From: Candidatus Saccharimonadales bacterium
GTDB lineage: Bacteria > Patescibacteriota > Saccharimonadia > Saccharimonadales > JANWIN01
Assembly: GCA_025449905.1 (NCBI GenBank)
Contig: JANWIN010000008.1
Coordinates: forward strand, 4,642 to 68,641
Reading direction: 5' to 3'
Length of the DNA stretch: 64,000 bases
The translations under genes and the position numbers were made by a program. Within the stretch, counting starts at the first letter, position 1; the number at the start of each line of letters is the position of its first letter. Below the pieces are notes generated by a model. It had not been told where the DNA came from. It worked only from the letters and a program-made list of their open reading frames with translations, and did not search any database. Below are positions 1-64,000 of the stretch, one piece after another.

Positions 1-34
1 ACCGAGCCTTCGCCCATTTCGCGAGGTTTTAATT

Positions 35-271
35 ATGGGTATACGTGAAGGAATAAGTGATTTTGCGAAAGATGCGAAAGTGAAGCTCGAGGGTCGTTCA
101 GCTCTGTCCACAAATCGAATTGCAAATAATCGCGAGGCTTTAGGTACGGGCAGTTTCACAGAAGCTTGCATCGGGCGCATTTGCAACATAGGTGCGGAAG
201 CAGCAGCCCACTTTATCATTCCAGAAGCAAAACCAGAAGTGATTGATCCGGGAGCTATTTACTATGACTAG
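35..271 (+). CDS. hypothetical protein (78 aa)
   Basis: ORF track only; no recognisable motif; its stop overlaps the next ORF's ATG by 8 nt. Confidence 0.3.
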   Translation: MGIREGISDFAKDAKVKLEGRSALSTNRIANNREALGTGSFTEACIGRICNIGAEAAAHFIIPEAKPEVIDPGAIYYD

Positions 272-521
272 TTTAGGTCCAGAAACAGACCCATTTATCA
301 ATCTAGGACTTCCTCCAAATTTCTCTGATTTTGTGGTTACGGCGCTAAAGAGAGGACGAAACGCAGAAGGTTGTCCTATTAATGTAAGTAGATCTGATGG
401 TGAAGTAGTTCCAATTGAGCAGCAAGAACTAAGAATTATTAACGATGCTGCTAATTTTGTTTGTGGCCCCGATGGCCCTAGACAAGTTGTTTCACTAATT
501 GCAGATATTATTCTGGAATAA
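264..521 (+). CDS. hypothetical protein (85 aa from ATG 264)
   Basis: ORF 243..521; ATG 264 (MTSLGPE...) overlaps the upstream stop; ends 4 nt before fusA GTG 526. Confidence 0.35.
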
Positions 522-525
522 AATT

Positions 526-2613
526 GTGGCAGAGAAAAAATACGAACTAGAAAAGGTTAGAAATATCGGCATTATTGCCCATATTGACGCCGGCAAAACT
601 ACCACAACCGAAGGTATTTTGTATCGCACTGGCCTGAAACACAAGATCGGTGCTGTACATGAAGGTGAAACCACTACCGATTGGATGGCGCAGGAAAAAG
701 AGCGTGGAATTACCATTACCGCCGCCGCCGTCACCTGTTACTGGAAAGATCACAAAATCAACATTATTGACACACCGGGGCACATTGACTTCACAGTCGA
801 AGTCGAGCGATCACTTCGTGTTCTAGACGGTGCAGTTGTAGTATTTGACGGCAAAATGGGCGTGGAAAGCCAGTCCGAAACGGTTTGGCGCCAGGCTGAT
901 AAGTACAACGTGCCGCGGATCTGCTTTATTAACAAAATCAATCAAACTGGTGGTGACTTTTATAAATCGCTAGAAAGTATTCATAACCGCCTAAGTAAGC
1001 ACGCTCACCCGATTCACTTGCCGATTGGTTTCGAACAAGGTGTAAACGGAATAGTCGACCTTATTTCCATGAAGGCTTACACCTACAAGGAATTTACCGA
1101 TAAAGAGCTGACTGAAGGTGAAGTACCGGAAGATATGAAGGAAAAGGCTCAGCGCTACCGGTCACTATTGGTTGAAGCTACCGTCGAGTATGACGATGCC
1201 TTGCTTGAAAAGTACCTTGAAGAAGGTGAAGACTCCTTGAGCGAAGACGAAGTTAGAAAAGCCGTCCGTGCTGCTGTTTTGTCCGGACAATTTTACGCCG
1301 TTAGCGGCGGTGATGGTCGCGGCGTAATTGTCGAGAAGTTACTAGATGCCGTTGTTGATTTTTTGCCCTCGCCGCTGGACAAAAGTTCGGTTTGGGGCAC
1401 TCACCCCAAAACTGGTGATGAAATTGAGCGTAAACCTGACGAATCCGAGCCACTGGCCGGATTAGCATTTAAGATTGCTACCGACCCGTTTGTCGGCAAA
1501 CTCTGTTTTTACAGGATTTACTCCGGAAAACTCCAAGCTGGTTCGTACATTTTAAATGCCAGTACCGGTGAAAAAGAGCGTGTCGGTCGAATTGTGCGCA
1601 TGCACGCTAACGACCGTGAAGAAGTAACCGAAGTTGGAGCTGGTGATATTGCCGCCATTGTTGGCCTGAAAGGCACAACTACCGGTAACACTTTAAGTGA
1701 TCTTAATAATCCGATTGTGCTGGAAAGTATAACTTTCCCAGACCCGCCGGTTAGTATTGCGATTGAGCCAAAGACCAAGGCTGATCAGGAAAAAATGGGC
1801 ATCGCCCTGCAGCGCTTGGCTGAAGAAGATCCTACCTTTCAGGTTAAAGGTGATGAAGAAACCGGCCAAACAATTATTTCCGGCATGGGTGAACTGCATC
1901 TGGAGATTATTGTTGACCGCATGAAGCGTGAGTTTACAGTTGAAGCTAATGTTGGCGCACCGCAGGTGGCTTACCGTGAAACTATCCGCAAAGATGCTGT
2001 CGAGTCCGAAGGCAAGTACATAAAACAATCCGGCGGCCGCGGCCAGTATGGACATGTCTGGATTAGGTTAAGCCAAAACGAGCAAGGTAAAGGCTTTGAG
2101 TTTATCAATTCCATTAAAGGTGGCAACGTGCCCAGTGAATACATACAGCCGGTAAAGGCCGGTATTGAAGAGGCTATGAGCAACGGTGTGATCGCCGGCT
2201 ATCCGGTAGTAGATGTTAAAGCTGAGCTATATGACGGCAGTTATCACGATGTAGACTCTAGCGAGATGGCCTTTAAAATTGCCGGCTCTATGGCCCTGCA
2301 GTCAGGTGTAAAAAACGCTAGCCCAGTGTTACTAGAACCCATTATGAAAGTTGTGGTGGTAACGCCCGAAGCTTCAATGGGTGATGTTATTGGCGACCTT
2401 AACTCCAAGCGCGGACGGATTGAATCTATGGAAGACCTGCAAGCTGGGATAAAAGAAATTACAGCTTTTGTGCCGCTGGGCGAAATGTTTGGCTACACAA
2501 CCAACCTGCGCAGTATGACTCAAGGTCGTGCCAGCTCAAGTATGGAACTTGACCACTATGCCGACGTACCAAATAACGTCGCCGAAACAATCATTGCCAA
2601 AAGCGGTAAGTAG
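526..2613 (+). CDS. fusA: translation elongation factor G
   Basis: G1 motif AHIDAGKTT and DTPGHIDF; full-length EF-G-like sequence. The ORF opens at TTG 499, but GTG 526 ([16 protein letters not shown]) follows the upstream stop and fits the canonical N-terminus. Confidence 0.95.
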
Positions 2614-2621
2614 AGTGCAAA

Positions 2622-3311
2622 ATGGGAAATAAACTAAGGCCACCCCATAAATCAATTACCACTCGTCTGCTAGCAACTGTTGCTGGCTTGGTTACTGTGG
2701 CGGCTTGCTCAGGAGCCAACAATTCATTTTTGACGATTGAAGAGCGACCCAAATTACGAACCACCACGACAACAACTCCAGAATTTGATGATCATGGCTG
2801 GGGTCACCCCGAAGCACAAAGAAATTTAGATGCGGTTACCACAAATGCACTAGGTAATCGAGCTTTAGTAAGGGTACGGGCAGGTGTATGCATAGAGTAC
2901 AAGACAGAAAATGCTACTGTGGTTGTCCAACATCCAATAGATGTAATTGGACGCCCGGCGTCTAATGTCGAAGCCCAAGTATTGGGTGGTGTTGTGCCTT
3001 CAATGAATCGAGATGTGGACGGCATGCGTAAGCACAGCGATATTGCAATAAGAGAAGTTGATGGCCGACTAGAGTACGGAAAGTTGGGGCATATACCCGG
3101 CGAAGTTCCAAGAGAAGTAATCACCACCCTTGAGCGCAGCGATCTTCAAATGTCTAGAAGCGATGAAGAATACCTAGGTGCTAGTGAATACCCGCTTGGT
3201 GGGGTGGTAAGCCTGGCGCCAACGGTGCCTAATTCTGATATACCACCAGGAAATGTAGTTTACATTAGAGCTCAACCTGAACGCATTAACGATTATTGCT
3301 TAATAGAATAA
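2622..3311 (+). CDS. putative secreted lipoprotein, function unknown
   Basis: N-terminal signal with lipobox LVTVAA|C; no other motif; sits between fusA and tuf. Confidence 0.55.
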   Translation: MGNKLRPPHKSITTRLLATVAGLVTVAACSGANNSFLTIEERPKLRTTTTTTPEFDDHGWGHPEAQRNLDAVTTNALGNRALVRVRAGVCIEYKTENATVVVQHPIDVIGRPASNVEAQVLGGVVPSMNRDVDGMRKHSDIAIREVDGRLEYGKLGHIPGEVPREVITTLERSDLQMSRSDEEYLGASEYPLGGVVSLAPTVPNSDIPPGNVVYIRAQPERINDYCLIE

Positions 3312-3318
3312 CCCTTTA

Positions 3319-3381
3319 CCCCGCCTATTAAATTGACGTTGCTGACGCAAAACTTGTTTTGTGTCAATTTAAATGGCGGGG
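3319..3381. repeat. long imperfect inverted repeat (19-nt arms, 25-nt loop), possible terminator or operator
   Basis: ccccgcctattaaattgac (3319-3337) versus gtcaatttaaatggcgggg (3363-3381), differing only by a central at/ta swap; weak T-tract after it. Confidence 0.4.
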
Positions 3382-3382
3382 C

Positions 3383-3411
3383 TTTACAAACCTCTTAACT
3401 TTAGTTAAAAT
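3383..3411 (+). promoter_or_regulatory. sigma70-like promoter for tuf
   Basis: TTTACA (3383-88), 17-nt spacer, TAAAAT (3406-11), about 75 nt upstream of the tuf ATG. Confidence 0.45.
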
Positions 3412-3487
3412 ACTTCGGTAATCCGTGTGGGTATTGCTATACGTACGCGAAAAACTTATTAATATCAGAATGATAGGAGAAAATTAA

Positions 3488-4669
3488 ATGGCAGATTTTG
3501 ACCGCTCAAAGCCGCACATCAACGTTGGAACTATGGGTCACGTTGATCACGGCAAAACTACATTAACCGCTGCAATTACCGCAGTGCTAGCTAAGAAATT
3601 ACCTAGTGATGTGAACAAACCAGTTAGTTATGACCAAATTGACAATGCACCAGAGGAAAAAGCTCGGGGTATTACTATTGCGACCTCTCACCAGGAATAC
3701 GAGAGTGAAAAGCGTCACTACGCCCACGTTGACATGCCCGGACACGCCGACTATGTCAAGAACATGATTACCGGTGCCGCCCAGATTGATGGCGCTGTAT
3801 TGGTTGTTTCAGCTGCTGATGGCCCTATGCCGCAAACACGCGAACATGTTCTTCTTGCCAAGCAAGTTGGCGTACCTTCTATCTTAGTTTTCATGAACAA
3901 GATGGACCTGGCTGACCCTGAACTAGTTGAACTAGTAGAAGTTGATATCCGCGACCTGCTTAAAAAGTACGAATTTGACGAAAAAGCACCTATCATCAAG
4001 GGATCTGCGACTAAGGCTCTTGAAGGCTCGGCTTCTGACGAAGATGCCATTATGGAACTTGTAAAGGCTATGGATGACTACATTCCAGAGCCTAAGCGTG
4101 AGCTAGACAAGCCGTTCTTAATGCCAATTGAGGACGTCTTTTCAATTAAAGGTCGCGGTACTGTTGCTACCGGCCGTGTTGAGCAAGGCGTTGTTAAAGT
4201 TAACGAAGAAGTTGAAATTGTTGGCCTACGCGACACTAAAAAGACGGTTGTTACTGGTGTAGAAATGTTCAAGAAGAATCTCGACCAAGGCCAAGCTGGC
4301 GACAACGTTGGAGTTCTATTACGCGGTGTTGAGCGCGAAGACATCGAGCGGGGCCAAGTTTTGGCTAAGCCCGGAACCATTACGCCGCACACCGAATTTG
4401 ACAGTGAAGTCTACATTCTGACCAAAGAAGAAGGTGGACGACACACACCATTCTTCAAGGGCTACAAGCCACAGTTTTACTTCCGAACTACTGATGTAAC
4501 GGGTGAAGTTGAACTTCCAGAAGATAAAGAAATGGTTATGCCGGGGGACACAATTACCTTTAAAGTGAAATTACTTCAACCGATTGCTATGGAACAAGGA
4601 TTGCGCTTCGCCATCCGCGAAGGTGGCCGAACCGTCGGCGCTGGTGTCGTTACCAAGATTAACAAATAA
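3488..4669 (+). CDS. tuf: translation elongation factor Tu
   Basis: [22 protein letters not shown] motifs; 393 aa; strong SD (taggagaaa). Confidence 0.97.
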
Positions 4670-6547: not shown

Positions 6548-7206
6548 GTGTAGCAACTTTCACTAAAACGGGAACCAAGGCAACCGCTGAAGCCAAATTG
6601 CACAAGGCTATTTTTGGCGTAGAGGTTGGTAGCCATGAACTGCTAAAACAAGCTTACGTTGGGTATTTGGCTAATGGCCGCAGTGCAGGTGCTAAAACCA
6701 AGACTCGCGGCCTAGTACGTGGTGGTGGACGAAAACCACACCCCCAAAAGGGTACCGGCCGAGCCCGTTCGGGCTCAAAACGAAATCCCTTGTGGACAGG
6801 TGGAGGTATAATTTTTGGCCCAACTGGCAATCAGAATTATTCTAAAAAGCTTAGCACTCAAGCTAAGCGACAAGCTTTAAGGCAAGCTTTGAGCCTAGCT
6901 GCCAAAGAAGGGCAGCTTAAGATTATTGAAACTTTTGAATGCAAAGAAGGCCAAGTTAAGCCGACATTGAGTTTACTTAAAAAAATTGGTGCTGAGGGCA
7001 ATGTCCTATTAGTTGTTAGTGTGCTTGATGAGCTGGTAGGCCGAGCCACGCGCAATATCTCAAACATAGCTGCTGTTCAGGCTAAATATCTTAACGTTTA
7101 TGACATTTTGAATGCTGAAACGATCATAATTAGCCAAAAATCTTTGGCAGTTATTAATGACTGGCTGGGTGAAGCTAAGACCAAAAAGGTGACAAGCAAT
7201 GAGTAA
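6544..7206 (+). CDS. rplD: 50S ribosomal protein L4 (uL4)
   Basis: RGGGRKPHPQKGTGRARSGS motif; 4-nt overlap with rplC. Confidence 0.95.
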   Translation: MSVATFTKTGTKATAEAKLHKAIFGVEVGSHELLKQAYVGYLANGRSAGAKTKTRGLVRGGGRKPHPQKGTGRARSGSKRNPLWTGGGIIFGPTGNQNYSKKLSTQAKRQALRQALSLAAKEGQLKIIETFECKEGQVKPTLSLLKKIGAEGNVLLVVSVLDELVGRATRNISNIAAVQAKYLNVYDILNAETIIISQKSLAVINDWLGEAKTKKVTSNE

Positions 7207-7666
7207 ATCAATGACTCTAAACCCAGTAATGAGCGAGAAGGCTTACGCTAGTAGTAAGGACCTAAGAACCTACGTATTTAGCGTTCCAGACTCGGCCAAT
7301 AAATTATCGGTTGCCGAAGCCGTTAAAGCACAATTTAAAGTCGGGGTGGATAAGGTAAAAGTTGCAAATATAAAAGGTAAGTCTAAGCGCACTGTTCGTC
7401 AAGGTCGTCCGGTTTATGGCCAACGCGTCACCGTCAAAAAGGCTTATGTAACGCTGAAAGAAGGCGATAGTTTACCATTTTTTGCTGAAGTAGAAAAAGA
7501 TCAGGAAAAGGCCGAGAAAACTGAAGAAAAAGCCAAAGCTGAGCCTGAAAATACAGAGAAGAGTACCGCTAAAGTCATTGAAGCTCCAGCAAAAAAGAAG
7601 CGTGGTCTAAGTGGTGTGTTTAACAGAAGTTCCCGCCAAACTCAAAACCGCGGAGGAGAAAAATAG
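7199..7666 (+). CDS. rplW: 50S ribosomal protein L23 (uL23) with K/E-rich C-terminal tail
   Basis: uL23 core in the first ~95 aa, then ~55 aa of EKDQEKAEKTEEKAKAE...; S10-operon position. Confidence 0.9.
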   Translation: MSKSMTLNPVMSEKAYASSKDLRTYVFSVPDSANKLSVAEAVKAQFKVGVDKVKVANIKGKSKRTVRQGRPVYGQRVTVKKAYVTLKEGDSLPFFAEVEKDQEKAEKTEEKAKAEPENTEKSTAKVIEAPAKKKRGLSGVFNRSSRQTQNRGGEK

Positions 7667-8503
7667 ATGGCTATAAAAGCTTATAAACCCACTACTCCAG
7701 CCAGACGCGGCATGACAACTCAGGACATGTCAACGATAACCGCTAAAAAGCCGGTTAAATCCCTACGCGTTGTTAAAAACAGAATTAACGGCCGAAACAA
7801 CCAGGGCCGCATTACCGTTCGTCATCGCGGTGGCGGAGCGCGTAAGTTCTATCGAATTGTTGATTTTAAACTGGAATCAGGGACCACGGCGGTGGTTGAG
7901 CAGATCGAATATGATCCGAACCGCAGTGCCCGAATTGCTCGCATTAAGGATGACAATAATAGCTATCACTATATTTTGGCTGGTAAGGGAATGAAAGTGG
8001 GCAAGAAAATTTCTAGTGGCGATGAATCAGCCATTGCTAGCGGCAATCGCTTACCTCTAAAGAATATTCCAGCCGGTAGCTCGATTTATGCTATTGAAAT
8101 GCAACCTGGCAAAGGCGCCCAAATTGCCAGAAGTGCCGGCGCAAGTGCTACACTTATGGGTAAAGAGGGTAAGTTTGCGCAGCTTAGGATGCCGAGCGGT
8201 GAAATTCGCTTAGTAAATTTGGACTGTACAGCTAGCTTGGGTGTGGTTGGTAACGAGCAGCACCAAAACATTAAGGTTGGCAAGGCTGGACGAACCCGTA
8301 GAAAAGGTATTCGCCCGACCGTCCGAGGTGTGGTTATGAACGCCGCAGACCACCCGCACGGTGGTGGTGACGGTGGTCGTCACGGTTCCGGTAAAGACCC
8401 ACGCACCCCTTGGGGCCAGAAGACGCTGGGCTACAAAACTCGCCGACGCAAGAATACCAATCAGTTTATTGTTAAAAGCCGACAGGCAGCAAAGAGGAGA
8501 TAG
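7667..8503 (+). CDS. rplB: 50S ribosomal protein L2 (uL2)
   Basis: RHRGGGARKFYR and NAADHPHGGGDG motifs. Confidence 0.97.
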   Translation: MAIKAYKPTTPARRGMTTQDMSTITAKKPVKSLRVVKNRINGRNNQGRITVRHRGGGARKFYRIVDFKLESGTTAVVEQIEYDPNRSARIARIKDDNNSYHYILAGKGMKVGKKISSGDESAIASGNRLPLKNIPAGSSIYAIEMQPGKGAQIARSAGASATLMGKEGKFAQLRMPSGEIRLVNLDCTASLGVVGNEQHQNIKVGKAGRTRRKGIRPTVRGVVMNAADHPHGGGDGGRHGSGKDPRTPWGQKTLGYKTRRRKNTNQFIVKSRQAAKRR

Positions 8504-54091: not shown

Positions 54092-54808
54092 GTGAAAAAG
54101 CACATTTTACTTGTACTGGCCGTTATCTTGGTTATCCTCGTTAGGCAGGTTGATTTTTTTAAGTTCAAAGATCATACTAATGGACCCAAAGTTTTTGATA
54201 AAACGACTCACTCTCTAAGTGACCCGGCAAGTCTCTGGATTATTGTTAATAAAAAGCGGCCACTTAACCCTCCTAATTACGAGCCAAACGATTTAACTAT
54301 GCCAAAAGTGCCTCTGCGCCGAGAGCCTAGTTCGGTCGAAATGAAGGTTAGGGCATCTGCTGCCAAAGCCATGGAAGAGCTATTTGATAGCGCTAAACAT
54401 GACGGCTTAAGCTTAGCTTTAGCCAGCGGCTACCGCTCTTATGATATGCAAAAAACAACGTACGATACTGAAGTTATTGGTTATGGTAAAAAGTTCGCTG
54501 ACACCGAAAGTGCTCGGCCAGGCTATAGCGAACATCAAACCGGCTGGGCGGCTGATGTTGGGCCTGAAAATGGCGAATGTGTGGTGCTGGACTGCTTTGC
54601 TAATACACCGGAGGGTAAGTGGTTAGCAATACACGCCTGGCAGCACGGTTTTGTAATTCGCTATCGGCAAAGCACTAAAGCTATTGTCGGTTATAAGTAC
54701 GAGCCTTGGCACATCAGGTACGTCGGTAAAGAACTAGCCAATGAGATTCACAAAACCAATCTGACATTAGAGCAATTTTTTGATTTACCAGCTGCACCCA
54801 ACTACTAA
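54092..54808 (+). CDS. VanY-type D-alanyl-D-alanine carboxypeptidase (M15B)
   Basis: SGYRSY, SEHQTGWAADV, EPWHIRYVG; N-terminal membrane anchor; GTG start. Confidence 0.88.
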   Translation: MKKHILLVLAVILVILVRQVDFFKFKDHTNGPKVFDKTTHSLSDPASLWIIVNKKRPLNPPNYEPNDLTMPKVPLRREPSSVEMKVRASAAKAMEELFDSAKHDGLSLALASGYRSYDMQKTTYDTEVIGYGKKFADTESARPGYSEHQTGWAADVGPENGECVVLDCFANTPEGKWLAIHAWQHGFVIRYRQSTKAIVGYKYEPWHIRYVGKELANEIHKTNLTLEQFFDLPAAPNY

Positions 54809-54810
54809 CG

Positions 54811-54884
54811 TGGCTTCGGGACTAGGATTCGAACCTAGATTGCCGGGACCAAAACCCGGTGTCCTACCATTAGACGATCCCGAA
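54811..54884 (-). tRNA. tRNA-Gln (anticodon UUG)
   Basis: The reverse complement folds as a cloverleaf: acceptor ttcggga/tcccgaa (U1-A72), anticodon loop TTTTGGT, CCA encoded. Confidence 0.8.
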
Positions 54885-55224: not shown

Positions 55225-55632
55225 ATGGCAACAACTAAAGAACCGACCGGCTGGATTGGCTGGGTTGGTTTTGCAAGTTTTATGCTACTGCTGGGCGGTA
55301 TGTTCGCACTACTCGCCGGCGTTGTAGCATTGTTCAAGGACACTACGGTCTATAACTCGGCAACCAACAATGCCTTTATTTTGAGTTATGACCAGTGGGG
55401 CTGGGCGCACATCCTAATCGGCTTATTGGCTGTTTGGGCTGGTTCGTCACTGATGCGAGGTGGTATGTACGGTAGAATTATTGCTGTTTTGGTAGCGTTG
55501 GTAAGTGCCGTGGTTAATGTGGCATTCATTCCTGTCTATCCAATCTGGGCAACAATCATCGTCGTAGTAGATGTACTTGTGATTTTTGCGGTGACGGTTC
55601 ATGGTAGGGAAATGAAGGGCTTAAGCGAATAA
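55225..55632 (+). CDS. integral membrane protein (135 aa, 4 TM)
   Basis: ORF track; SD acggagg; hydrophobic profile. Confidence 0.6.
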   Translation: MATTKEPTGWIGWVGFASFMLLLGGMFALLAGVVALFKDTTVYNSATNNAFILSYDQWGWAHILIGLLAVWAGSSLMRGGMYGRIIAVLVALVSAVVNVAFIPVYPIWATIIVVVDVLVIFAVTVHGREMKGLSE

Positions 55633-55697
55633 TAGCTTTTCAACTATAAACAAAATGGGTCCAGAGAAATCCGGACCTATTTTAATTTTAACGAGGT

Positions 55698-57470
55698 TTA
55701 ATTCCAGCGAACGTCGTCGATGTAAGCCAAAATACCAGCGTTAGCACTGTTTATTATCTGTAGACTAGCCGATTTAACGTTAGCTGAACTGGCTACGTAT
55801 TTAACCACCACGTTGCCTTTGCCAACAGCGTGAACAGTAGCCTTGTACTGGCCGGAAATCCACTGGCCATTGGCGTCATACTCATCAATGTAAAAACCTA
55901 CGCCGCTGCTAGTGGTAGTAACTTTTTTAGCATTAACGTAGGTAGAGATAGTGTATGTCTGGCCGTAATTTATGCCGATTTTAGAGGAAAACAGGTGCGT
56001 ACTTTTAGTTCCAGAGACAAACTTTACCGAGTTGACCGGGTTGGCCGGGCTGCCATTATTTAAACTATCAGCTGTAATATTGGCTGGACCATCGGTAGTC
56101 CAACCGCCGCTAATGCCAGCGTCAAAGCTGCCATTTGGTATAAAAGTCACTCCAGATGGAGGCGTTGGGGCGGTTGAATATAGCGGAAACCATTGGCTAT
56201 TGTCCAAGTAGGCGGTAATGCCCGAGTTGCCAGTCACGTAAACTTGTAAGCTAGCAGACTTAACATCATCGGAAGTCGGCTTATAGCTAAAGTTCATTTC
56301 CTCTACAAAGACGCTTTTTTCAGCGGCCTTGAATTGGCCGGATACCCAGTTGCCAAAACCGTCATATTCATCAATGTAAAAACCAACTTCGCCGCCAGAC
56401 AGCTGGGCAACATTTAAGAAGTTTTTAAGCATGTAGGTAGTATCAGGGTCTACTTCAACTTGTGGTGAGAACAAATGGCCGGTTTGCGAGTCAGCAGTCA
56501 GTTTAACCGCGTTGGCCGGGTCAGGATAACTGCCATTATTAGCACTGTCAGCAGTAATGCCGGTTGGGCTGTCGGTAGACCATCCATCCCCTAAGCCATT
56601 ATTAAAACTCGGGTTGGCTAACAGATTAACGTCACTGCGTACCAGTCCATCGTTGACTTTAACAACGTTAATATTCTTGGATTTAACATAAGCCGCCACT
56701 TGATCTAGATTGCCAGTGCTGTATTCATAATCGTCGGCTCTGGTACTGGCCTTGGTTTTAATGTCATGGAAAACTAAAACCAACCACTGATTGTTAGCGG
56801 CCGCGGCATCTACGTAGCCTTTGATAGTCGCCACGCTGGTTTGGCCGGAAACTGTCTGGACTTTCAGGAAGTAATCGCTATTGGGCCAGCTGTTATAGCC
56901 AACGTCGTTAAAACCGCGCTGGCTAGAGTAATACTTGGCAATTTCAGCTAGAATCTTTGGACTATAGTCGCCGTAAGGGGTAGAGAAGTTTGCGGCGTTG
57001 ATGCCGTGAGCGCTTAGCGCTGCTTTGCTTTGACTTAATTCATTGGTTACTTGATCAGGGGTTAAGACATTTGGCTGGCCTTCAGCCGGGTCACTTGTAG
57101 CTAACAACGGGTGACTGACGGTATGCGAGCCAATTTCCCAACCATAGCTATTTTGCAGTTGGGTTATTTGAGCCCAAGTCAGATAAGTCTTGTCTGAGTC
57201 AGCCTTACAGGCATTGCGGATTTTAGTCATGCCAACGCAGTTAGTGATAACGTAATCGGTGCCCACAAAGCCGTACTTAGCCAGGGTCGGTGCCGCCGTA
57301 GTTAAAGCGCTGGTGTAGCCATCATCAAAGGTAAAAGATACTTTAGCGGCTGGCACTGCATTGATAGTTAGGGCCGAAGCTCGCAAAGGAGTAGCAATCA
57401 ATAGAAGGCTCCAGACAGCGGCGACACTTAGGATAGACAGCTTGCGGGCTTTTTGGTTGTTTGGTTGCAT
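55698..57470 (-). CDS. secreted polysaccharide deacetylase (NodB domain) with two tandem CBM-like jelly-roll repeats
   Basis: Signal peptide from ATG 57470 (MQPNNQKARKLSILSVAAVWSLLLIA...); FTFDDGY and GSHTVSHP motifs. Two ~150-aa repeats share GFYIDEYD...W(V/I)SGQ(F/Y)KA...VKSASLQ. Confidence 0.82.
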   Translation of the reverse strand: MQPNNQKARKLSILSVAAVWSLLLIATPLRASALTINAVPAAKVSFTFDDGYTSALTTAAPTLAKYGFVGTDYVITNCVGMTKIRNACKADSDKTYLTWAQITQLQNSYGWEIGSHTVSHPLLATSDPAEGQPNVLTPDQVTNELSQSKAALSAHGINAANFSTPYGDYSPKILAEIAKYYSSQRGFNDVGYNSWPNSDYFLKVQTVSGQTSVATIKGYVDAAAANNQWLVLVFHDIKTKASTRADDYEYSTGNLDQVAAYVKSKNINVVKVNDGLVRSDVNLLANPSFNNGLGDGWSTDSPTGITADSANNGSYPDPANAVKLTADSQTGHLFSPQVEVDPDTTYMLKNFLNVAQLSGGEVGFYIDEYDGFGNWVSGQFKAAEKSVFVEEMNFSYKPTSDDVKSASLQVYVTGNSGITAYLDNSQWFPLYSTAPTPPSGVTFIPNGSFDAGISGGWTTDGPANITADSLNNGSPANPVNSVKFVSGTKSTHLFSSKIGINYGQTYTISTYVNAKKVTTTSSGVGFYIDEYDANGQWISGQYKATVHAVGKGNVVVKYVASSANVKSASLQIINSANAGILAYIDDVRWN

Positions 57471-57588
57471 AGTAGTAAGATTTTTCCTTAAAACCCCACG
57501 TTTATCGTTAGTATACAATACTTGTGCATTATTAGCAATACTATGACGCTTAGCTTTATTGGTCGCTGCGCAGGAGACGTTCATCAGC

Positions 57589-58860
57589 TTAAGCACCAAC
57601 CCTTATTGGCGATATCCACTTACCGCCGGCATCTGACTGCTGGGTTATATCTTTATAGTTAGATAAGCATTTAAAAACCGCTATTACCTGAATAACCGTC
57701 ATCACGTAAAACAGCGGGTAAAGTGCTGGCGTTAGCAAAGACAAGGCAATTTTTTCTTTAAAGCTGAAGTACTCATCACCCCAGATTGCGAACAGTAGGA
57801 CAATCATTACCACTGCGCAGGCACCGGTGTAAAAGGCTGGGTTTAGGTTAACAATAGCTAGGTAAAACAGAGCAATAATTAATAGCGGCTCGAGTATTAG
57901 TTGTATTTCGCCCCATAGCGCTAGCGGCAGTTTGAACCAGCTAAGCATTTTACTGTGCCGAGACTGAGTACTAAACACCAGCTTACGATTAAGATAGATG
58001 GCTTGCAGGGCGCCTAGTTTCCAGCGGTAACGTTGGCGAAGCAGATTCTTATAAGTCGGTGCCGGTTCGGTATAAACCACCACATCGCTGCCGTATAACA
58101 AGCGGTTTACTTTATTACCCAACCTGGTAATTGCTAGGCTAATGGCGATATCTTCGGTCTGCATACTGCGCAGGTAATGCTTAACCTGGTTAAATACTTC
58201 CTTTCGGTAAAATGCGCCGGCGCCGCCGATGATGTACTCACAGTTAGCGTCGGAATTTAGTTTTTTGCTTCTAAAGCCGATTAAAAAGTCGAACTTTTGC
58301 AATATACCAATCAGCGTATAGCTGGGTAAAATCCGGACATTAGAGGCTAGTGCGGCTGTTTTTTCGTCGCTGAAGTAACGCACGGCATTCTTTATGGCGT
58401 TTTTCTCAATCTTGCAGTCTGCATCAAGGGTCATAACCAACTCGCCAGCCGGGAAGCGCTGGATGCCGTAGTGCAGAGCCTCGCCCTTACCGCCGTTAGC
58501 GCGCCGGGTTATTAGTTTTATATCTTTACTGGGATGCGTTTTAATAAAACGTCTAACTATTTCGCTGGTTTTATCAGTTGAGCCATCATCAACCACCACT
58601 ATTTGATACTTTCGGTAGGAACTTTTAACAATGCTTGTCAAACACCTCTCAATAACCCGCTCTTCATTGTTAGCGGCAATTAAAATCTTTACCGTTGGGC
58701 GATAGGCAAAGTATTTACCGCTCGGGTGCTTTTTTTGCTTTTTAAGCCGGTGAGTAGCTCGAATATCATAGATGTTGGCAAATATTAAGATTAAAGCCAT
58801 GTAAGTCAGGCTAAGAAGGGCTAGGCTTATAAAAATGTAGGTCAAAATTTGATGAGTCAT
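57589..58860 (-). CDS. processive family-2 glycosyltransferase (PgaC/IcaA/NodC-like)
   Basis: VVVDDGSTD, TLDADC, QTEDIA, QRYRWKLG (QxxRW); TM segments at both ends. Confidence 0.85.
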   Translation of the reverse strand: MTHQILTYIFISLALLSLTYMALILIFANIYDIRATHRLKKQKKHPSGKYFAYRPTVKILIAANNEERVIERCLTSIVKSSYRKYQIVVVDDGSTDKTSEIVRRFIKTHPSKDIKLITRRANGGKGEALHYGIQRFPAGELVMTLDADCKIEKNAIKNAVRYFSDEKTAALASNVRILPSYTLIGILQKFDFLIGFRSKKLNSDANCEYIIGGAGAFYRKEVFNQVKHYLRSMQTEDIAISLAITRLGNKVNRLLYGSDVVVYTEPAPTYKNLLRQRYRWKLGALQAIYLNRKLVFSTQSRHSKMLSWFKLPLALWGEIQLILEPLLIIALFYLAIVNLNPAFYTGACAVVMIVLLFAIWGDEYFSFKEKIALSLLTPALYPLFYVMTVIQVIAVFKCLSNYKDITQQSDAGGKWISPIRVGA

Positions 58861-58863
58861 GGC

Positions 58864-59454
58864 TTAGCTCACCTTCAGCAATCTAAAGGTCATTATTCGA
58901 CGGTACTGGTAAAATGTGCCTTCACAAGTCATTAGCCGGATTTCCGGCTTTTCAGCCGCTAAACCAAGAATGTTAGTGTCGGTCGGGTTAGCGTAATTAT
59001 CGTGAACGTAGTAATACTCAAACAGCTTGCCATTTCGGCCTTTAATCAGTAGTTGATCACCTTCAACCAGCTTTTCAGTCTTCTTCAGTACATCAGCCCG
59101 GTTGTGACCATATATTAAAGTGTTACTTTTTTTACTACTCAGCGGCGTGGTTACGTCACTGGCGTAAAAGACGCTGTCATTAGACAACGTCCACAGCCGT
59201 GTGGTTGGATTATAATGGCCGTCCTGAACATCGAGGTTAATACCTAGACGCGGTAGGCTAATACTGGCTGGCAGAGCTGTCTGCGTAGGTTTGGCAGCCG
59301 GACTCTCTATTGTTTGGTTAATTCTAACGTCGTTGGTGGCAATAACTCTTTTTATTGATAGCGACTTATAAAAATAGGGAAAAGTAAAGGCCAGAAGTGT
59401 CAGGCCGTATAGCGGCATTATCTTTAAAACAAAGGTTTTACGTGAGGCTTCCAT
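58864..59454 (-). CDS. sortase
   Basis: N-terminal anchor, catalytic IYGHN, LMTCEG and a downstream Arg (YRRIMTF). Confidence 0.85.
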   Translation of the reverse strand: MEASRKTFVLKIMPLYGLTLLAFTFPYFYKSLSIKRVIATNDVRINQTIESPAAKPTQTALPASISLPRLGINLDVQDGHYNPTTRLWTLSNDSVFYASDVTTPLSSKKSNTLIYGHNRADVLKKTEKLVEGDQLLIKGRNGKLFEYYYVHDNYANPTDTNILGLAAEKPEIRLMTCEGTFYQYRRIMTFRLLKVS

Positions 59455-59524
59455 TTGCGTATCTAGTGTAAATAACAGCCCCTGAAGACTGTTATTTTAC
59501 GGTTAACTTTTAGCTAACTTCCAA

Positions 59525-59707
59525 TTATTTAGAAGTCATTTTGTAGACACGGCTAGCTGCGTGGGTAAGCAAGATTGCACCTATCGCAAACAAGCTGACA
59601 ATAGCGATTATTCCTAGGCTTCCATGTGTATCTGGAAGTAAGGCAACGCCACCGGCTACTGCTGCAGCTCCACCGCCGAATCCACCTACGGGTAAAGTAC
59701 CTGACAT
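59525..59707 (-). CDS. 60-aa mini-protein consisting essentially of a Gly/Ala-rich segment plus an LPxTG-type sorting signal
   Basis: MSGTLPVGGFGGGAAAVAGGVALLPDTHG-SLGIIAIVSLFAIGAILL-THAASRVYKMTSK: LPDTHG, then a hydrophobic helix, then a basic tail. Perfect SD aaggag 5 nt upstream; first gene of the sortase operon. Confidence 0.6.
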   Translation of the reverse strand: MSGTLPVGGFGGGAAAVAGGVALLPDTHGSLGIIAIVSLFAIGAILLTHAASRVYKMTSK

Positions 59708-59810
59708 TTTAACTCCTTAAGATTTAGTTCAAAAAATACTTTATAGGATTTTTGACGTTTAGTCAATTAGATTTTTGCAATTCAGCGATTATACCTCTAA
59801 TAATATAAAC

Positions 59811-59839: not shown

Positions 59840-59945
59840 GCTAATTCAAGGGTAAGCCGAGTTGTCTTATATAACCGCTCGGCATCAACATTAAATGCGG
59901 CGGTTGCCGCCTCTCGCAGAGAGTAAAGAAGGAGTTTTATTACTC

Positions 59946-61061
59946 ATGAAAGCAAAGCTTTTTAATCAAGATTTACTAACCAAGAGTTTATTGGTTGTTC
60001 TAGCCTTACTATTAGTATGGTTTGTAATGTTTTTATTCGACATGCCCAAGAAAACCAACGGTGTTGTTCTGGGCGAATCAGCCAGCGTAGTCAGTGGCAC
60101 ACAAGGTCCACAGGGGATCCCCGGTTTAGACGGTCTTCAAGGAGTACAGGGAATACAAGGTATTCAGGGCGTCGCTGGCGTTAACGGCCAAGACGGTAAA
60201 GATGGAAACGATGGCGCAACTGGCGCTCAAGGTGTTCAGGGAGTTCAAGGTGAAACTGGTGCTCAGGGCGCACAAGGTCCACAGGGTGACACTGGTCAAA
60301 CTGGTGCTCAGGGACCACAGGGTGTTCAAGGTGTAAAAGGTGACACCGGAGCAACCGGTGCGCAAGGTCCGCAGGGCGACACTGGTGCTACCGGCGCTCA
60401 AGGTCCTCAAGGTGATAAAGGTGATATTGGTTTAACCGGTCCTCAAGGTGTTCAGGGTGAAACCGGTCCACAGGGAATTCAAGGTCCTATCGGTTTAACC
60501 GGTGCACAAGGACCACAGGGAATTCAAGGTCCTCAGGGTGACACCGGTCTTCAAGGTCCAACTGGTCAAACCGGTGCTATTGGTCTTACTGGTCCTCAAG
60601 GTCCAGCCGGAATCCAAGGTCCTATTGGCTTAACTGGCCCAACTGGTGCTACTGGTGCGCAAGGTCCTATCGGCTTAACAGGTCCAACCGGTCCTGCCGG
60701 TGCTACTGGTGCGCAAGGTCCTATTGGTCTAACCGGTCCCCAGGGTCCAGCTGGTCCAGCTGGTGCTGCCGGAGCCAACGCTTCAGCTTCACTAGAAACT
60801 GTTACTGCCACCTCAGGTACCGCAACTGGTTCGCCAGAAACTGCTTCTGCAACAGTTAGCTGTACGGGTTCTAAAAAGATCCTAGGCGGTGGCTACTTAG
60901 TTAACGCTGGTGTCGCTTCAGCCTCTAACAACCCAGGTGAAGTTAGCGTTGTGGAAAACCGTGCCGCTAGCGCTACTAGCTGGATAGTTCGAGCCTTCAC
61001 TGATAACAGCGGTGACGTAGGTAGCTGGACAATTACGGCTTACGCAATTTGTAGCCTGTAA
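59946..61061 (+). CDS. membrane-anchored collagen-like (G-X-Y repeat) protein with 94-aa C-terminal globular domain
   Basis: About 75 uninterrupted G-X-Y triplets (nt 60096-60776). N-terminal anchor [17 protein letters not shown]. The alternative in-frame ATG 59895 lacks an SD. Confidence 0.85.
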
Positions 61062-61779: not shown

Positions 61780-61809
61780 CCCTGGTATTAAGAGTTCTCG
61801 CGGTACAAT

Positions 61810-64000
61810 ATGCCTGTGAGCAAGTTTGAGAGCGAATACAAAAAGCTTAATCCAGCCCAAAAGCAGGCTGTTGACTATATTGAGGGCCCTTTGCTGGTTA
61901 TCGCCGGGCCGGGCACCGGTAAAACCCAACTTCTGACAACTCGGGTAGCCAATATTCTCTATAAAACTGATGTCCAGCCACAAAATATTCTATGCCTGAC
62001 CTTTACTGAGTCAGCTGCCTATGAAATGCGTCAACGCTTGGTCAACATGATTGGCCAACGAGCTTACAACATAACTATCAATACTTACCATGCTTTTGGC
62101 AGTGAGCTAATCGGTCGTTTTCCGGAATATTTTACAGATACCACGGACCTCCGGCCAGTTGATGAACTTGGACAGCATAGCATCGTCAAAAACATAATTG
62201 ATAATTTAAATTATGATAATCCTTTGAAAAATGCTAACAACTACGTCAAGGATGTCGTTGGTACGATTAGCGAGCTAAAAGTCGCTCTGCTAGAGCCTGA
62301 AGATATCAAAAAAATAGCTCAAGCTAACCTTAAGGACCTAGCTTTATTAAGCAAGCATACTAAGGTTGAGTTAAGCGGCCTGGTTCGGATAAGTTCTAAA
62401 TCAATTGACCTTTTTAAAAAGCTAGCCACCGCCACCAAGAAACTTAACAGCTCAAAGTATATAAGCCCGGGAATTTTAAGCTTGCCAAGCCTTTGGCAAC
62501 AGCAGTTGGAAGAGGCCCTTGAGCAGTGCGCCGTAAGTGGTAAAACTAAACCGCTAACCGAGTGGAAAAATAATTGGCTAATACGGGATGCTTCTAATAA
62601 TTTTGTGGCTGAAGGCGTTAATACTAATAAAAAGCTAGCGGCCCTAGCCGATATCTACGCCAGTTATCTCGAAAACCTAACAAGCCAAAAGCTGTTCGAT
62701 TACGACGATATGATACTGCATGCCGTAAGCGGGCTGGAAAAGTCACTGGAGCTACGCTACCGCTTACAAGAACAATATATGTACATCCTGCTGGACGAAT
62801 TTCAAGACACCAACGCCGCCCAACTAAAAATGGTTAAGCTGTTAAGCGACAACCCGTTGTTTGAAGGCAAGCCCAATGTCTTGGCAGTTGGCGACGACGA
62901 TCAGGCCATTTACGCTTTTCAGGGGGCCAACTACTCACATATGCTGACGTTTATGGCTATGTATAAGGGTGTTGAGCCAATCTCATTAACTGAAAACTAC
63001 CGCTCACATAAAGATGTTCTGCATCTTACCCATGGTATAGCCGAGCAGATTGAGGAGCGGCTGCACCATCACCTGAAAGATATAAATAAGCTGCTAAGCG
63101 CCGAAAACCGCCAGCTACCAGCCAAAGCTAGGGTTGAGCGACATGAGTTTAAGAGTGATGTTAGCGAATATGCTTGGATAGCTAAGCAAATAAGCACGTT
63201 AATAAAAAAGGGTGTTAAGCCCAGCGAAATCGCCGTATTAGCCCCAAAGCACCGCTATTTGGAGCCACTGGTGCCTTATTTAACCCGGGCCAACATTCCG
63301 CTGCGTTATGAAAAACGCGAAAATATCCTAGAAGACCCGCACATTAGCCAGTTAATTAGAATGAGCCAGCTGGTAATCTGCCTTCAGCAGAAAAATTACG
63401 GCGAGGCGGCCAGCTTGTGGCCAGAGGTTTTAAGCTACGATTTTTGGCAGCTGCCGACCGATCTTATCTGGCAATTATCGTGGCAAGCCAACGACACGCG
63501 ATCTGACTGGACTAACTTATTAGCCAACAATAGCCAAACTAAGCCGATAGCTATGTTTTTTAGTCGTCTTAGTAATCTTTTAAAAACTGAGACCCTGGAG
63601 ACCATACTTGATAGCTTAATTGGCATTACCCCACTGGACGCTACTGACTCCAAAAAGGCCTTCAGCTCACCGTTTTATGAGTATAATTTTGGCAAACCTG
63701 CCCGGGCTAAAAATTTACGTGGTTTTTGGAGCTTATTGTCCAATTTGACCGTCCTAAGACAACACTTACGCGAATATCGCCAAGCCGAAGATCAGGCCTT
63801 AATTCTGCCAGACCTTGTAAAATTCGCCGACGAGCACCGCGAGGCCAATATCAAAATACTTAACACCAGTCCTTATCACGAATCAGCTGAAGCCGTCCAA
63901 ATTATGACCGCCTACCGGGCTAAAGGTCAGGAGTTTGAGCACGTTTTTATTACGGCTTGCGTCGATGAAGTGTGGGGCTCCAAGGCTTCGTCGCAGTCTA
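61810..64000 (+). CDS. UvrD/PcrA-family helicase (3' end truncated by the window edge)
   Basis: Hand-translated from ATG 61810 as MPVSKFESEYKKLNPAQKQAVDYIEGPLLVIAGPGTGKTQLL...LTFTESAA...ILLDEFQDTN...GDDDQAIY. Open to the window end, so absent from the ORF track. Confidence 0.85.
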   Translation, partial: MPVSKFESEYKKLNPAQKQAVDYIEGPLLVIAGPGTGKTQLLTTRVANILYKTDVQPQNILCLTFTESAAYEMRQRLVNMIGQRAYNITINTYHAFGSELIGRFPEYFTDTTDLRPVDELGQHSIVKNIIDNLNYDNPLKNANNYVKDVVGTISELKVALLEPEDIKKIAQANLKDLALLSKHTKVELSGLVRISSKSIDLFKKLATATKKLNSSKYISPGILSLPSLWQQQLEEALEQCAVSGKTKPLTEWKNNWLIRDASNNFVAEGVNTNKKLAALADIYASYLENLTSQKLFDYDDMILHAVSGLEKSLELRYRLQEQYMYILLDEFQDTNAAQLKMVKLLSDNPLFEGKPNVLAVGDDDQAIYAFQGANYSHMLTFMAMYKGVEPISLTENYRSHKDVLHLTHGIAEQIEERLHHHLKDINKLLSAENRQLPAKARVERHEFKSDVSEYAWIAKQISTLIKKGVKPSEIAVLAPKHRYLEPLVPYLTRANIPLRYEKRENILEDPHISQLIRMSQLVICLQQKNYGEAASLWPEVLSYDFWQLPTDLIWQLSWQANDTRSDWTNLLANNSQTKPIAMFFSRLSNLLKTETLETILDSLIGITPLDATDSKKAFSSPFYEYNFGKPARAKNLRGFWSLLSNLTVLRQHLREYRQAEDQALILPDLVKFADEHREANIKILNTSPYHESAEAVQIMTAYRAKGQEFEHVFITACVDEVWGSKASSQS

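Follow-up and report, generated by a model that had tools for sequence, protein, structure and literature searches.

By definition, a sortase substrate is a secreted protein with a passenger domain and a signal peptide, and characterized sortases cleave after Thr via a thioacyl intermediate. To our knowledge, every characterized sortase substrate has a Sec signal peptide. This study concerns a gene for a 60-amino-acid (aa) protein in a 64-kb stretch of DNA from Candidatus Saccharimonadales bacterium (64,000 nucleotides of contig JANWIN010000008.1, positions 4,642 to 68,641, hereafter referred to as the window), where it is followed by genes for a sortase, a membrane glycosyltransferase of family GT2 and a polysaccharide deacetylase. 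Comparative sequence analysis leads us to propose, with a probability of about 0.7, that this mini-protein is a dedicated minimal substrate of the adjacent sortase within a glycan cassette. A cassette of mini-substrate, dedicated sortase, polysaccharide synthase and often deacetylase has apparently not been described in Patescibacteria-type bacteria, and a literature search returned nothing on the combination of mini-substrate, sortase and GT2. Genomes of these bacteria, also known as the candidate phyla radiation (CPR), are rich in sortases (PMC6744442).

Similar to substrates of the classical SrtA/LPXTG system, the mini-protein has an LPxT core, a hydrophobic helix and a basic tail, and is encoded beside a cysteine transpeptidase with a His/Cys/Arg triad. 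Its relatives also share the canonical LPxTG motif and matches to the anchor hidden Markov models (HMMs). Different from classical substrates, however, the mini-proteins have no Sec signal, no folded passenger and only 11-24 residues before the motif, which in the window protein reads LPxT-H-G. Moreover, the mini-protein is the sole candidate in the 64-kb window and is tied to a glycan synthase, whereas the classical system has many substrates. Class B SrtB with IsdC is one single-substrate pair, and the class GN 'marine' sortase and its target form a second. SrtB and AbpA are another dedicated sortase-substrate pair (PMC4974636). All these pairs resemble the window locus in that one sortase lies beside one cognate substrate with a variant motif. 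Their substrates, however, are secreted proteins of full size that have signal peptides, no processive GT2 accompanies them, and the window sortase matches no class model. Annotators have already noticed tiny sortase-motif proteins, as NCBIfam contains NF058583 ('LAXTG motif-containing small protein'), a 54-position profile for proteins of approximately 54 aa with a sortase-type motif. The window protein did not match NF058583, the best relative, that of locus L014, reached 16.8 bits where the cut-off is 65, and the literature search found no functional paper on NF058583 or the mini family.

We regard the PEP-CTERM/EpsH system as the closest conceptual analog of the mini cassette, as sorting by a motif, a transmembrane (TM) helix and a basic tail is embedded there in exopolysaccharide loci (PMC1569441). 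The two have in common a C-terminal tripartite tail, a dedicated transpeptidase-like enzyme and a gene link to exopolysaccharide; they differ in enzyme family and motif, and PEP-CTERM systems occur in Gram-negative hosts with many signal-peptide-bearing substrates per genome. SafA, which is encoded downstream of the actinobacterial housekeeping sortase, uses an FPW motif and, without being a substrate itself, shields the sortase from signal peptidase (PMC9282373). It is likewise small, crosses the membrane once and shows genetic linkage to a sortase, but the mini gene lies upstream of the sortase and its product lacks FPW and possesses a full sorting signal. Similar to the window operon, icaADBC and pgaABCD contain a PgaC/IcaA-type GT2, a PgaB/IcaB/HfsH-like deacetylase and a small membrane protein. 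The window operon differs in its sortase and in the lack of IcaD/PgaD homology. We know of no locus for poly-N-acetylglucosamine (PNAG) in which a sortase is an operon member. Finally, the Pf3 coat protein is inserted without a signal in an N-out/C-in orientation, its short, uncharged N-tail being translocated. The mini-protein is similarly tiny, with a short, nearly uncharged N-tail, one TM helix and a basic C-terminus; the two have no sequence relation, and a common insertion route may be supposed.

Features and Conservation of the Mini-Protein

The mini-protein gene is located at 59525-59707 on the minus strand, as supported by translation, comparative and profile evidence. Its product, MSGTLPVGGFGGGAAAVAGGVALLPDTHGSLGIIAIVSLFAIGAILLTHAASRVYKMTSK, is exactly the 60-aa sequence quoted in a preliminary description of this DNA, and the ORF list of the window contains no overlapping rival open reading frame (ORF) of at least 40 aa. 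Residues 1-23 (59639-59707) form an uncharged Gly/Ala-rich N-tail, residues 24-29 (59621-59638) the LPDTHG motif, residues 30-48 (59564-59620) a TM segment with a predicted insertion energy of approximately -1.8 kcal/mol, and residues 49-60 (59528-59563) a basic tail with R53, K56 and K60, all on the minus strand. The hydrophobic segment and the positive tail thus follow the motif directly, and the LPxTG-like motif, hydrophobic helix and basic tail reported earlier were all recovered. Neither a basic n-region nor a cleavage site was found in the window protein, in agreement with the earlier remark that no Sec signal is obvious. Instead of a canonical LPXTG pentapeptide, the window protein has LPDTH followed by G. 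In an alignment with 13 relatives with LPxTG or LAxTAG, the His is a one-residue insertion, and among the mini clades compared a His between Thr and Gly was confined to the window clade. The motifs of the 13 mini-proteins of other clades were LPxTG (11/13) or LA[NT]TAG (2/13). The window protein did not match PF00746 or TIGR01167 at E ≤ 1. Among 16 mini-proteins, PF00746 matched nine (best E 6.6e-5) and TIGR01167 six, two of them just over the 15.9-bit cut-off. The window protein thus fails on three features of classical substrates, namely the canonical pentapeptide, the signal peptide and the HMM threshold.

A single TM segment is predicted in the window protein. The predicted insertion energy of its N-tail is approximately +5.6 kcal/mol, and the N-tails of 7 of the 16 mini-proteins are just 11-16 residues long, which is not enough to span a bilayer. 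The general topology is therefore predicted to be N-out/C-in; such a single span is the sole predicted topology that fits the whole mini family, and the charge distribution agrees with it. These values contradict the earlier idea that the Gly/Ala-rich passenger itself spans the membrane. A two-TM hairpin was also rejected, as the N-tail lacks either the hydrophobicity or the length for a second span.

Whether the mini-protein or the sortase served as query, word-indexed protein searches returned the same three genomes only. In 5.8 billion protein clusters, the window mini-protein had just two further orthologs, one from JGI metagenome 3300078620 and the other from the metagenome-assembled genome GCA_964540225.1 and run SRR6868923. 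They share the gene order mini-ORF, sortase, GT2 and polysaccharide deacetylase. The identities among the three orthologs were 78-83% for the mini-protein and 69-70% for the sortase. Between the window mini gene and that of L001, dN/dS was 0.16 at a dS of approximately 0.8. In-frame stop codons were present 1-7 codons 5' of the start in 8 of 15 mini genes, a tblastn search with the passenger domains of the longer substrates described below found nothing upstream of the mini genes, and approximately 190 bp separate the window mini gene from the divergently oriented gene next to it. These comparisons indicate that the mini ORF is a real gene under purifying selection. They also speak against its being the 3' remnant of a decayed larger surface protein, which the preliminary description had named as the finding that would overturn its interpretation.

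Related Loci

Related loci, denoted by L numbers, were collected, 7 of them via exact-protein look-ups and a further 13 via a metagenome scan for NTLIYGHN. The sortases of these loci are 28-41% identical to that of the window, where a BLASTP identity was reported. The window and 20 related loci, 186.8 kb in all, were surveyed in six frames and contained 1,064 ORFs of at least 40 aa. A sorting-signal pattern, defined as L[PA]xT[GAH] plus a hydrophobic stretch plus at least two Lys/Arg residues, was found in exactly 20 ORFs, each immediately 5' of a sortase gene, and was absent from the other 1,044. Linkage to a cognate sortase was complete, as such an ORF is present in 20/20 loci for which sequence upstream of the sortase exists (the window and L001 counted). 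In the 64-kb window, the mini ORF is the only one with the pattern. Moreover, an HMM built from the 13 mini-proteins of other clades matched the window mini-protein alone among 970 window ORFs (E = 5e-7; next-best ORF, E 0.26). Homologous mini-ORFs, which the preliminary description proposed to look for beside sortases, are thus found directly upstream of related sortases in many metagenomic lineages, mostly with LPxTG, and lend support to its core reading of a near-pure sorting signal encoded with its own sortase.

The 16 distinct mini-proteins, which include one JGI sequence without retrievable DNA and exclude the truncated one of L019, are 46-63 aa in length and have no signal peptide. Examples are MSGQGQVLGASTSATGIAVLPNTGGN..., MSGDSTGQVASAAVSATGVALLPATGEG..., MNYGKGATPGVAGVALLPFTGNN... 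and MEYQSGAATLAGVATTTAGVAVLPETGST.... Their N-tails of 11-24 residues are composed mainly of G (25%), A (20%), V (10%), T (8.5%) and S (8%) and carry a charge of 0-1, while their C-tails contain 2-4 Lys/Arg residues. Only the L-x-x-T core, the following Gly/Ala, the TM segment and the basic tail are nearly invariant. The composition of the N-tails is kept between lineages, but their sequences are poorly conserved.

At four loci, longer substrates of 103-186 aa occupy the position of the mini-protein. Those of L005, L007 and L008 consist of 174-186 aa and possess a signal peptide, a SNTGPDSTN-type passenger and the motif LPNTG, LPNTA or LPKTG. In the L005 and L008 substrates, a Gly-rich stretch that resembles the mini N-tails precedes LPNTG or LPKTG. 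The fourth, from L011, is 103 aa long, contains a SpaA-like fragment and shows no evident signal peptide. The three classical substrates of L005, L007 and L008 at the mini position support the identification of the mini-proteins as substrates. On a rough neighbor-joining (NJ) tree of the sortases without support values, mini-proteins are found on most deep branches.

The Dedicated Sortase

The adjacent sortase reported earlier was confirmed at 58864-59454 on the minus strand, its start lying 70 nt downstream of the mini ORF. The protein has 196 aa, an N-terminal TM helix and the residues His117, Cys177 and Arg185, and matches PF04203 with 51.2 bits (cut-off, 26.6). His117, Cys177 and Arg185 are invariant in alignments of 45 and 53 sequences. 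An AlphaFold2 (AF2) model with a predicted local distance difference test (pLDDT) score of 89.8 displays the sortase beta-barrel, and Foldseek matched it to SrtA, SrtE1 and SrtC at E values of approximately 1e-9. Thus, with an invariant triad and a confidently modeled sortase fold, the enzyme looks competent. Matches to PDB sequences and by Foldseek place it equidistant from classes A, C, D and E, and the best scores against the NCBIfam class A-F models were 22-25 bits (C, D and F) versus cut-offs of 140-166. A profile search of 1.84 billion representatives yielded 896 matches at E ≤ 1e-3, and nearly all of the best 150 of these are 150-230 aa long. The window sortase therefore belongs to a distinct subfamily of approximately 900 representatives. 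One member is annotated as 'Patescibacteria group bacterium', on which the taxonomy of the relatives rests; no subfamily sortase was found in scans of GTDB species-representative genomes. The window contains one sortase.

The GT2 and the Deacetylase

The gene for a PgaC/IcaA-like processive membrane synthase of family GT2 (423 aa; 57589-58860, minus strand) starts 3 nt past the stop codon of the sortase gene. The protein possesses the motifs DDGSTD, LDAD, TED and QRYRW, which are typical of processive beta-glycan synthases, together with one N-terminal and approximately 3-4 C-terminal TM segments, and thus combines the D, DxD, (T)ED and QxxRW motifs and flanking TM helices of a processive GT2. 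The PgaC_IcaA model matched it over its full length with 137 bits against a cut-off of 422, indicating the family type, not an equivalog. The next gene (55698-57599, minus strand) encodes a secreted CE4 polysaccharide deacetylase with a CBM_4_9 domain; the Met at approximately 57470 is probably the true start and is followed by a signal peptide. Model matches show resemblance to PgaB/IcaB/HfsH. PDB sequence searches with the GT2 and the deacetylase gave generic matches only. A terminator-like hairpin with a T-run (55658-55677, minus strand) after the deacetylase gene likely marks the operon end.

In every locus with a readable same-strand downstream gene, the sortase is followed by a homologous membrane GT2 or GT2-like protein (blastp), whose start often overlaps or abuts the sortase stop within a few nt. 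The deacetylase gene type is also found in the cassettes of L001, L006, L009, L014 and L017. The MNYGKG clade possesses the same four gene types in another layout, the deacetylase-CBM gene being divergent and the GT2 gene convergent. This GT2 and CE4 linkage, which the preliminary description overlooked, is the strongest pointer to function.

The D, DxD, TED and QxxRW motifs are kept in all 10 complete GT2s associated with mini-proteins, and the partial GT2 of L012, of which 156 residues are available, keeps both motifs in that part. The GT2-like proteins of L005, L007, L008 and L010 are without DxD, TED and QxxRW; the gene upstream of the L010 sortase is off the contig, and its sister L011 carries a long substrate. 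This motif loss occurred in two separate places on the rough NJ tree. The genes for the motif-less proteins (L005, 5579-6781; L007, 5594-6613; L008, 5623-6690; L010, 628-1503) are still translationally coupled to the sortase genes, and their products look like pseudo-enzymes retained as partners. Although the sample is small and not independent, the motif distribution suggests joint action of the mini-substrate and an active polymerase.

Expression Signals of the Mini Gene

The perfect Shine-Dalgarno (SD) sequence of the preliminary description is AAGGAG at 59713-59718 on the minus strand, 5 nt ahead of the ATG. Comparably strong SD sequences precede 13 of 15 related mini genes, and the remaining two seem leaderless. 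In the latter, the mini genes of L013 (139-303) and L016 (3218-3373) with the motifs LANTAG and LATTAG, a TATAAT ends 7 nt before the ATG, there is no SD and the 3' end of the mini gene overlaps the start of the sortase gene, which suggests leaderless mRNAs. A consensus scan found a sigma-70-like promoter site for the cassette, TTGACT-17 nt-TAAAGT, at 59738-59766 on the minus strand. Its -35 TTGACT and the -10-like hexamer are kept in L001 and L002, and the SD is, like the -35, conserved among the window orthologs. A perfect palindrome, TTGAC-N5-GTCAA (59752-59766), overlaps the -35, is kept as TTGACTTATAGTCAA in L001 and L002, where a Crp-family gene lies just upstream, and may be an operator. 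In L002, this Crp/cNMP-binding HTH gene is located directly upstream at 2695-3387 on the minus strand; a Crp-family gene is also found near the cassette of L007.

The spacer between the mini and sortase genes contains a stem-loop (59468-59500, minus strand) with an extended 9-bp core stem. The folding energy of the spacer is -18.1 kcal/mol (z = -3.1), and the stem-loop is retained in L001 via compensatory changes; the 9-bp-stem hairpin noticed earlier is thus real. Strong hairpins (z of -3.1 to -7.1) follow the mini gene in six of the seven loci whose spacer is at least 60 nt, those of L006, L015, L017 and L018 having z values of -3.8 to -7.1. In the remaining loci, the spacer is 2-28 nt long or the genes overlap. 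Rfam contained no RNA family matching the cassette region. The window stem-loop is likely a partial terminator or an mRNA-stabilizing hairpin. Hairpins at this position fit production of the substrate in excess of the sortase, and also the earlier impression that the arrangement resembles that of highly expressed structural subunits.

Proposed Function of the Cassette

The following pathway is proposed. The mini gene would be transcribed from its own promoter, and the hairpin would bring the substrate into excess over the enzymes. The TM segment (residues 30-48) and the Lys/Arg tail would keep the C-terminus in the cytoplasm, while the short uncharged N-tail would be translocated without Sec, possibly like that of the Pf3 coat, thereby placing LPDTHG at the outer face of the membrane. 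By analogy to characterized sortases, the His117/Cys177/Arg185 enzyme would cut after Thr27, within GGVALLPDTHGSL, and form a thioacyl intermediate with a Gly/Ala-rich peptide of 27 residues, predicted to be SGTLPVGGFGGGAAAVAGGVALLPDT or its Met-retaining form. An amine, either of a peptidoglycan precursor or of glucosamine in a partly de-N-acetylated polymer made by the GT2 and CE4 enzymes, would resolve this intermediate. The net result would be a short, hydrophobic, ribosomally made peptide that is covalently held in the envelope and functionally tied to exopolysaccharide.

As the acceptor, peptidoglycan is the default, and we lean toward the wall at somewhat under even odds. The cassette glycan is considered appreciably less likely, and the remainder falls to other acceptors or water. 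If the glucosamine amines of the cassette polymer were the acceptor, the gene linkage between the sortase and the glycan enzymes would be explained. Because mini-proteins correlate with catalytically intact GT2s, it is conceivable, though we hold it only tentatively, that the cassette makes a ribosomally templated peptide-glycan conjugate distinct from murein, or a peptide that joins exopolysaccharide to the wall. In the former, glucosamine amines freed by CE4 on the GT2 polymer may be the nucleophile, so that the chain would be re-acylated with the 27-residue peptide; in the latter, the mini-peptide may connect exopolysaccharide covalently to the wall. Alternatively, an exposed, N-terminally free, hydrophobic and fusion-peptide-like peptide (compare GGFGGGAAAVAGGVALL) could take part in adhesion to or insertion into host-cell envelopes; the source bacteria are probably episymbiotic Patescibacteria.

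Two modes of polymerization were considered and rejected. Pilin-like polymerization mediated by Lys would demand a Lys in the N-tail, which is confined to one clade. Head-to-tail polymerization via a uniform N-terminal Gly or Ser is at odds with the varying N-termini (MSG, MYG, MNYG, MYD and MEY), and because these differ, Met removal is expected to be non-uniform.

Evaluation of Alternative Explanations

Several observations weigh against the identification of the mini-protein as a sortase substrate acting in a glycan cassette. The window protein has no Sec signal peptide. Because the motif is LPDT-H-G, the residue after the predicted cut is His rather than Gly, and the PF00746 and TIGR01167 scores are below detection. 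The sortase fits none of classes A-F and its structural matches are equidistant. The deacetylase is missing from the cassettes of L003, L004 and L005. The correlation with GT2 motifs comes from approximately 15 phylogenetically non-independent loci and a rough NJ tree without support values. Finally, as the loci were found through sortase similarity, the sample is confined to one sortase subfamily.

The alternative that survives best, which we nevertheless consider unlikely, is that the mini-protein stays unprocessed and acts as an accessory or regulatory membrane subunit, such as a SafA-like partner stabilizing or gating the sortase, a pseudo-substrate decoy or an IcaD/PgaD-like small subunit of the GT2 synthase, the LPxTG-like loop serving for docking instead of cleavage. 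PNAG synthases require small membrane partners such as IcaD and PgaD, and the operon offers no other candidate for a small partner of the GT2. The missing signal peptide and the non-canonical LPDT-H-G would fit a non-substrate as well, and small TM proteins that are linked to sortases without being substrates do exist, for instance SafA (PMC9282373). However, the nearly invariant features of the mini-proteins are the parts of a sorting signal only, and textbook substrates occupy the same position in sister lineages. A SafA-like role is further contradicted by the lack of FPW and by gene order, the mini gene being upstream of the sortase gene and safA downstream, and an IcaD/PgaD-like role by the absence of any Pfam or NCBIfam match even at E ≤ 1 and by one TM segment instead of two.

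It is still less probable that the sortase serves as a maturation protease, either freeing a diffusible signal or surface-active peptide or leaving a functional C-terminal fragment in the membrane. Sortases hydrolyze the acyl intermediate if no nucleophile is present, which would permit such a reaction, and a peptide product is plausible because the passenger of the mini-protein has no fold. The N-tail sequences vary between lineages, however, different from specific signaling peptides, and the conserved coupling to glycan synthase and deacetylase would be left unexplained.

We consider it very improbable that the mini ORF is a leader peptide whose translation, together with the hairpin, attenuates transcription of the sortase and GT2 genes, the product itself being irrelevant. 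A small ORF followed by a hairpin and operon genes is the classical layout of an attenuator, but here strong purifying selection extends over the entire mini-protein, the sorting-signal architecture is shared by lineages with unrelated DNA, the hairpin lies past the stop codon, outside the ORF, and several loci with spacers of 2-28 nt or sortase overlap lack a hairpin. That the ORF is a functionless chance ORF or decayed 3' remnant of a larger LPXTG protein, whose origin by truncation is plausible given the similarity of the mini N-tails to the Gly-rich stretch that precedes the motif of the L005 and L008 substrates, is effectively refuted by the conservation data (dN/dS of 0.16, upstream in-frame stops in 8/15 mini genes without passenger homology upstream, and the spread of mini-proteins over most deep branches in the sortase tree), as well as by its own SD and promoter-like site and the mere 190 bp or so to the divergent gene.

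Neighboring Genes

Divergent from the promoter region of the mini gene, the window encodes a collagen-like Gly-X-Y protein (59895-61061, plus strand; PF01391, 7.7e-38). This protein is anchored by a TM segment at its N-terminus, has a non-collagen domain at its C-terminus and lacks a sorting signal. Its gene is not conserved beside the cassette in L001 and L002. From approximately 61790 to 64000 on the plus strand, a UvrD/PcrA-helicase-like ORF of at least 736 codons continues past the end of the window, which is why no ORFs were listed for this region. The other flank contains genes for a VanY/LdcB-type peptidoglycan carboxypeptidase (54092-54808, plus strand) and a DUF7144 membrane protein (55225-55632, plus strand) and a tRNA gene (54814-54884, minus strand). 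The carboxypeptidase could shape acceptor stem peptides; its linkage is not conserved in L001.

In L003 (7777-9318, minus strand) and L009 (5887-7407, minus strand), genes for proteins of 513 and 506 aa, respectively, in which HTH_3 is fused to an EPSP-synthase/MurA-family domain, were found beside the cassette. L003 also encodes a second, larger sortase of 286 aa (6939-7799, minus strand). Directly upstream of the long-substrate cassette on the 1.19-Mb contig of L005 is a type IV pilus cluster (1-4234), which encodes a prepilin peptidase, N_methyl pilins and a PilX_N protein, among others.

Implications

The mini family breaks both rules for sortase substrates, as the signal peptide is missing and the passenger is reduced to 11-24 residues. 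Even so, the family is conserved and recurrent, with its own sortase subfamily and a genetic tie to a polysaccharide synthase and a deacetylase. If the mini-proteins are indeed substrates, sortases would install short ribosomal peptides, and not proteins only, in the envelope. Sortase chemistry would then be linked to exopolysaccharide assembly in Gram-positive-type cells, similar to the Gram-negative link of the PEP-CTERM/exosortase hypothesis, which has been open since 2006. The window pair would also be a naturally minimal sortase and substrate with unusual post-cut residues in the family (His and Ala), of possible use in sortase-mediated ligation. Finally, the cassette would offer a point of entry to the cell surface of the Patescibacteria, which is poorly understood and on whose attachment the lifestyle of these bacteria relies.

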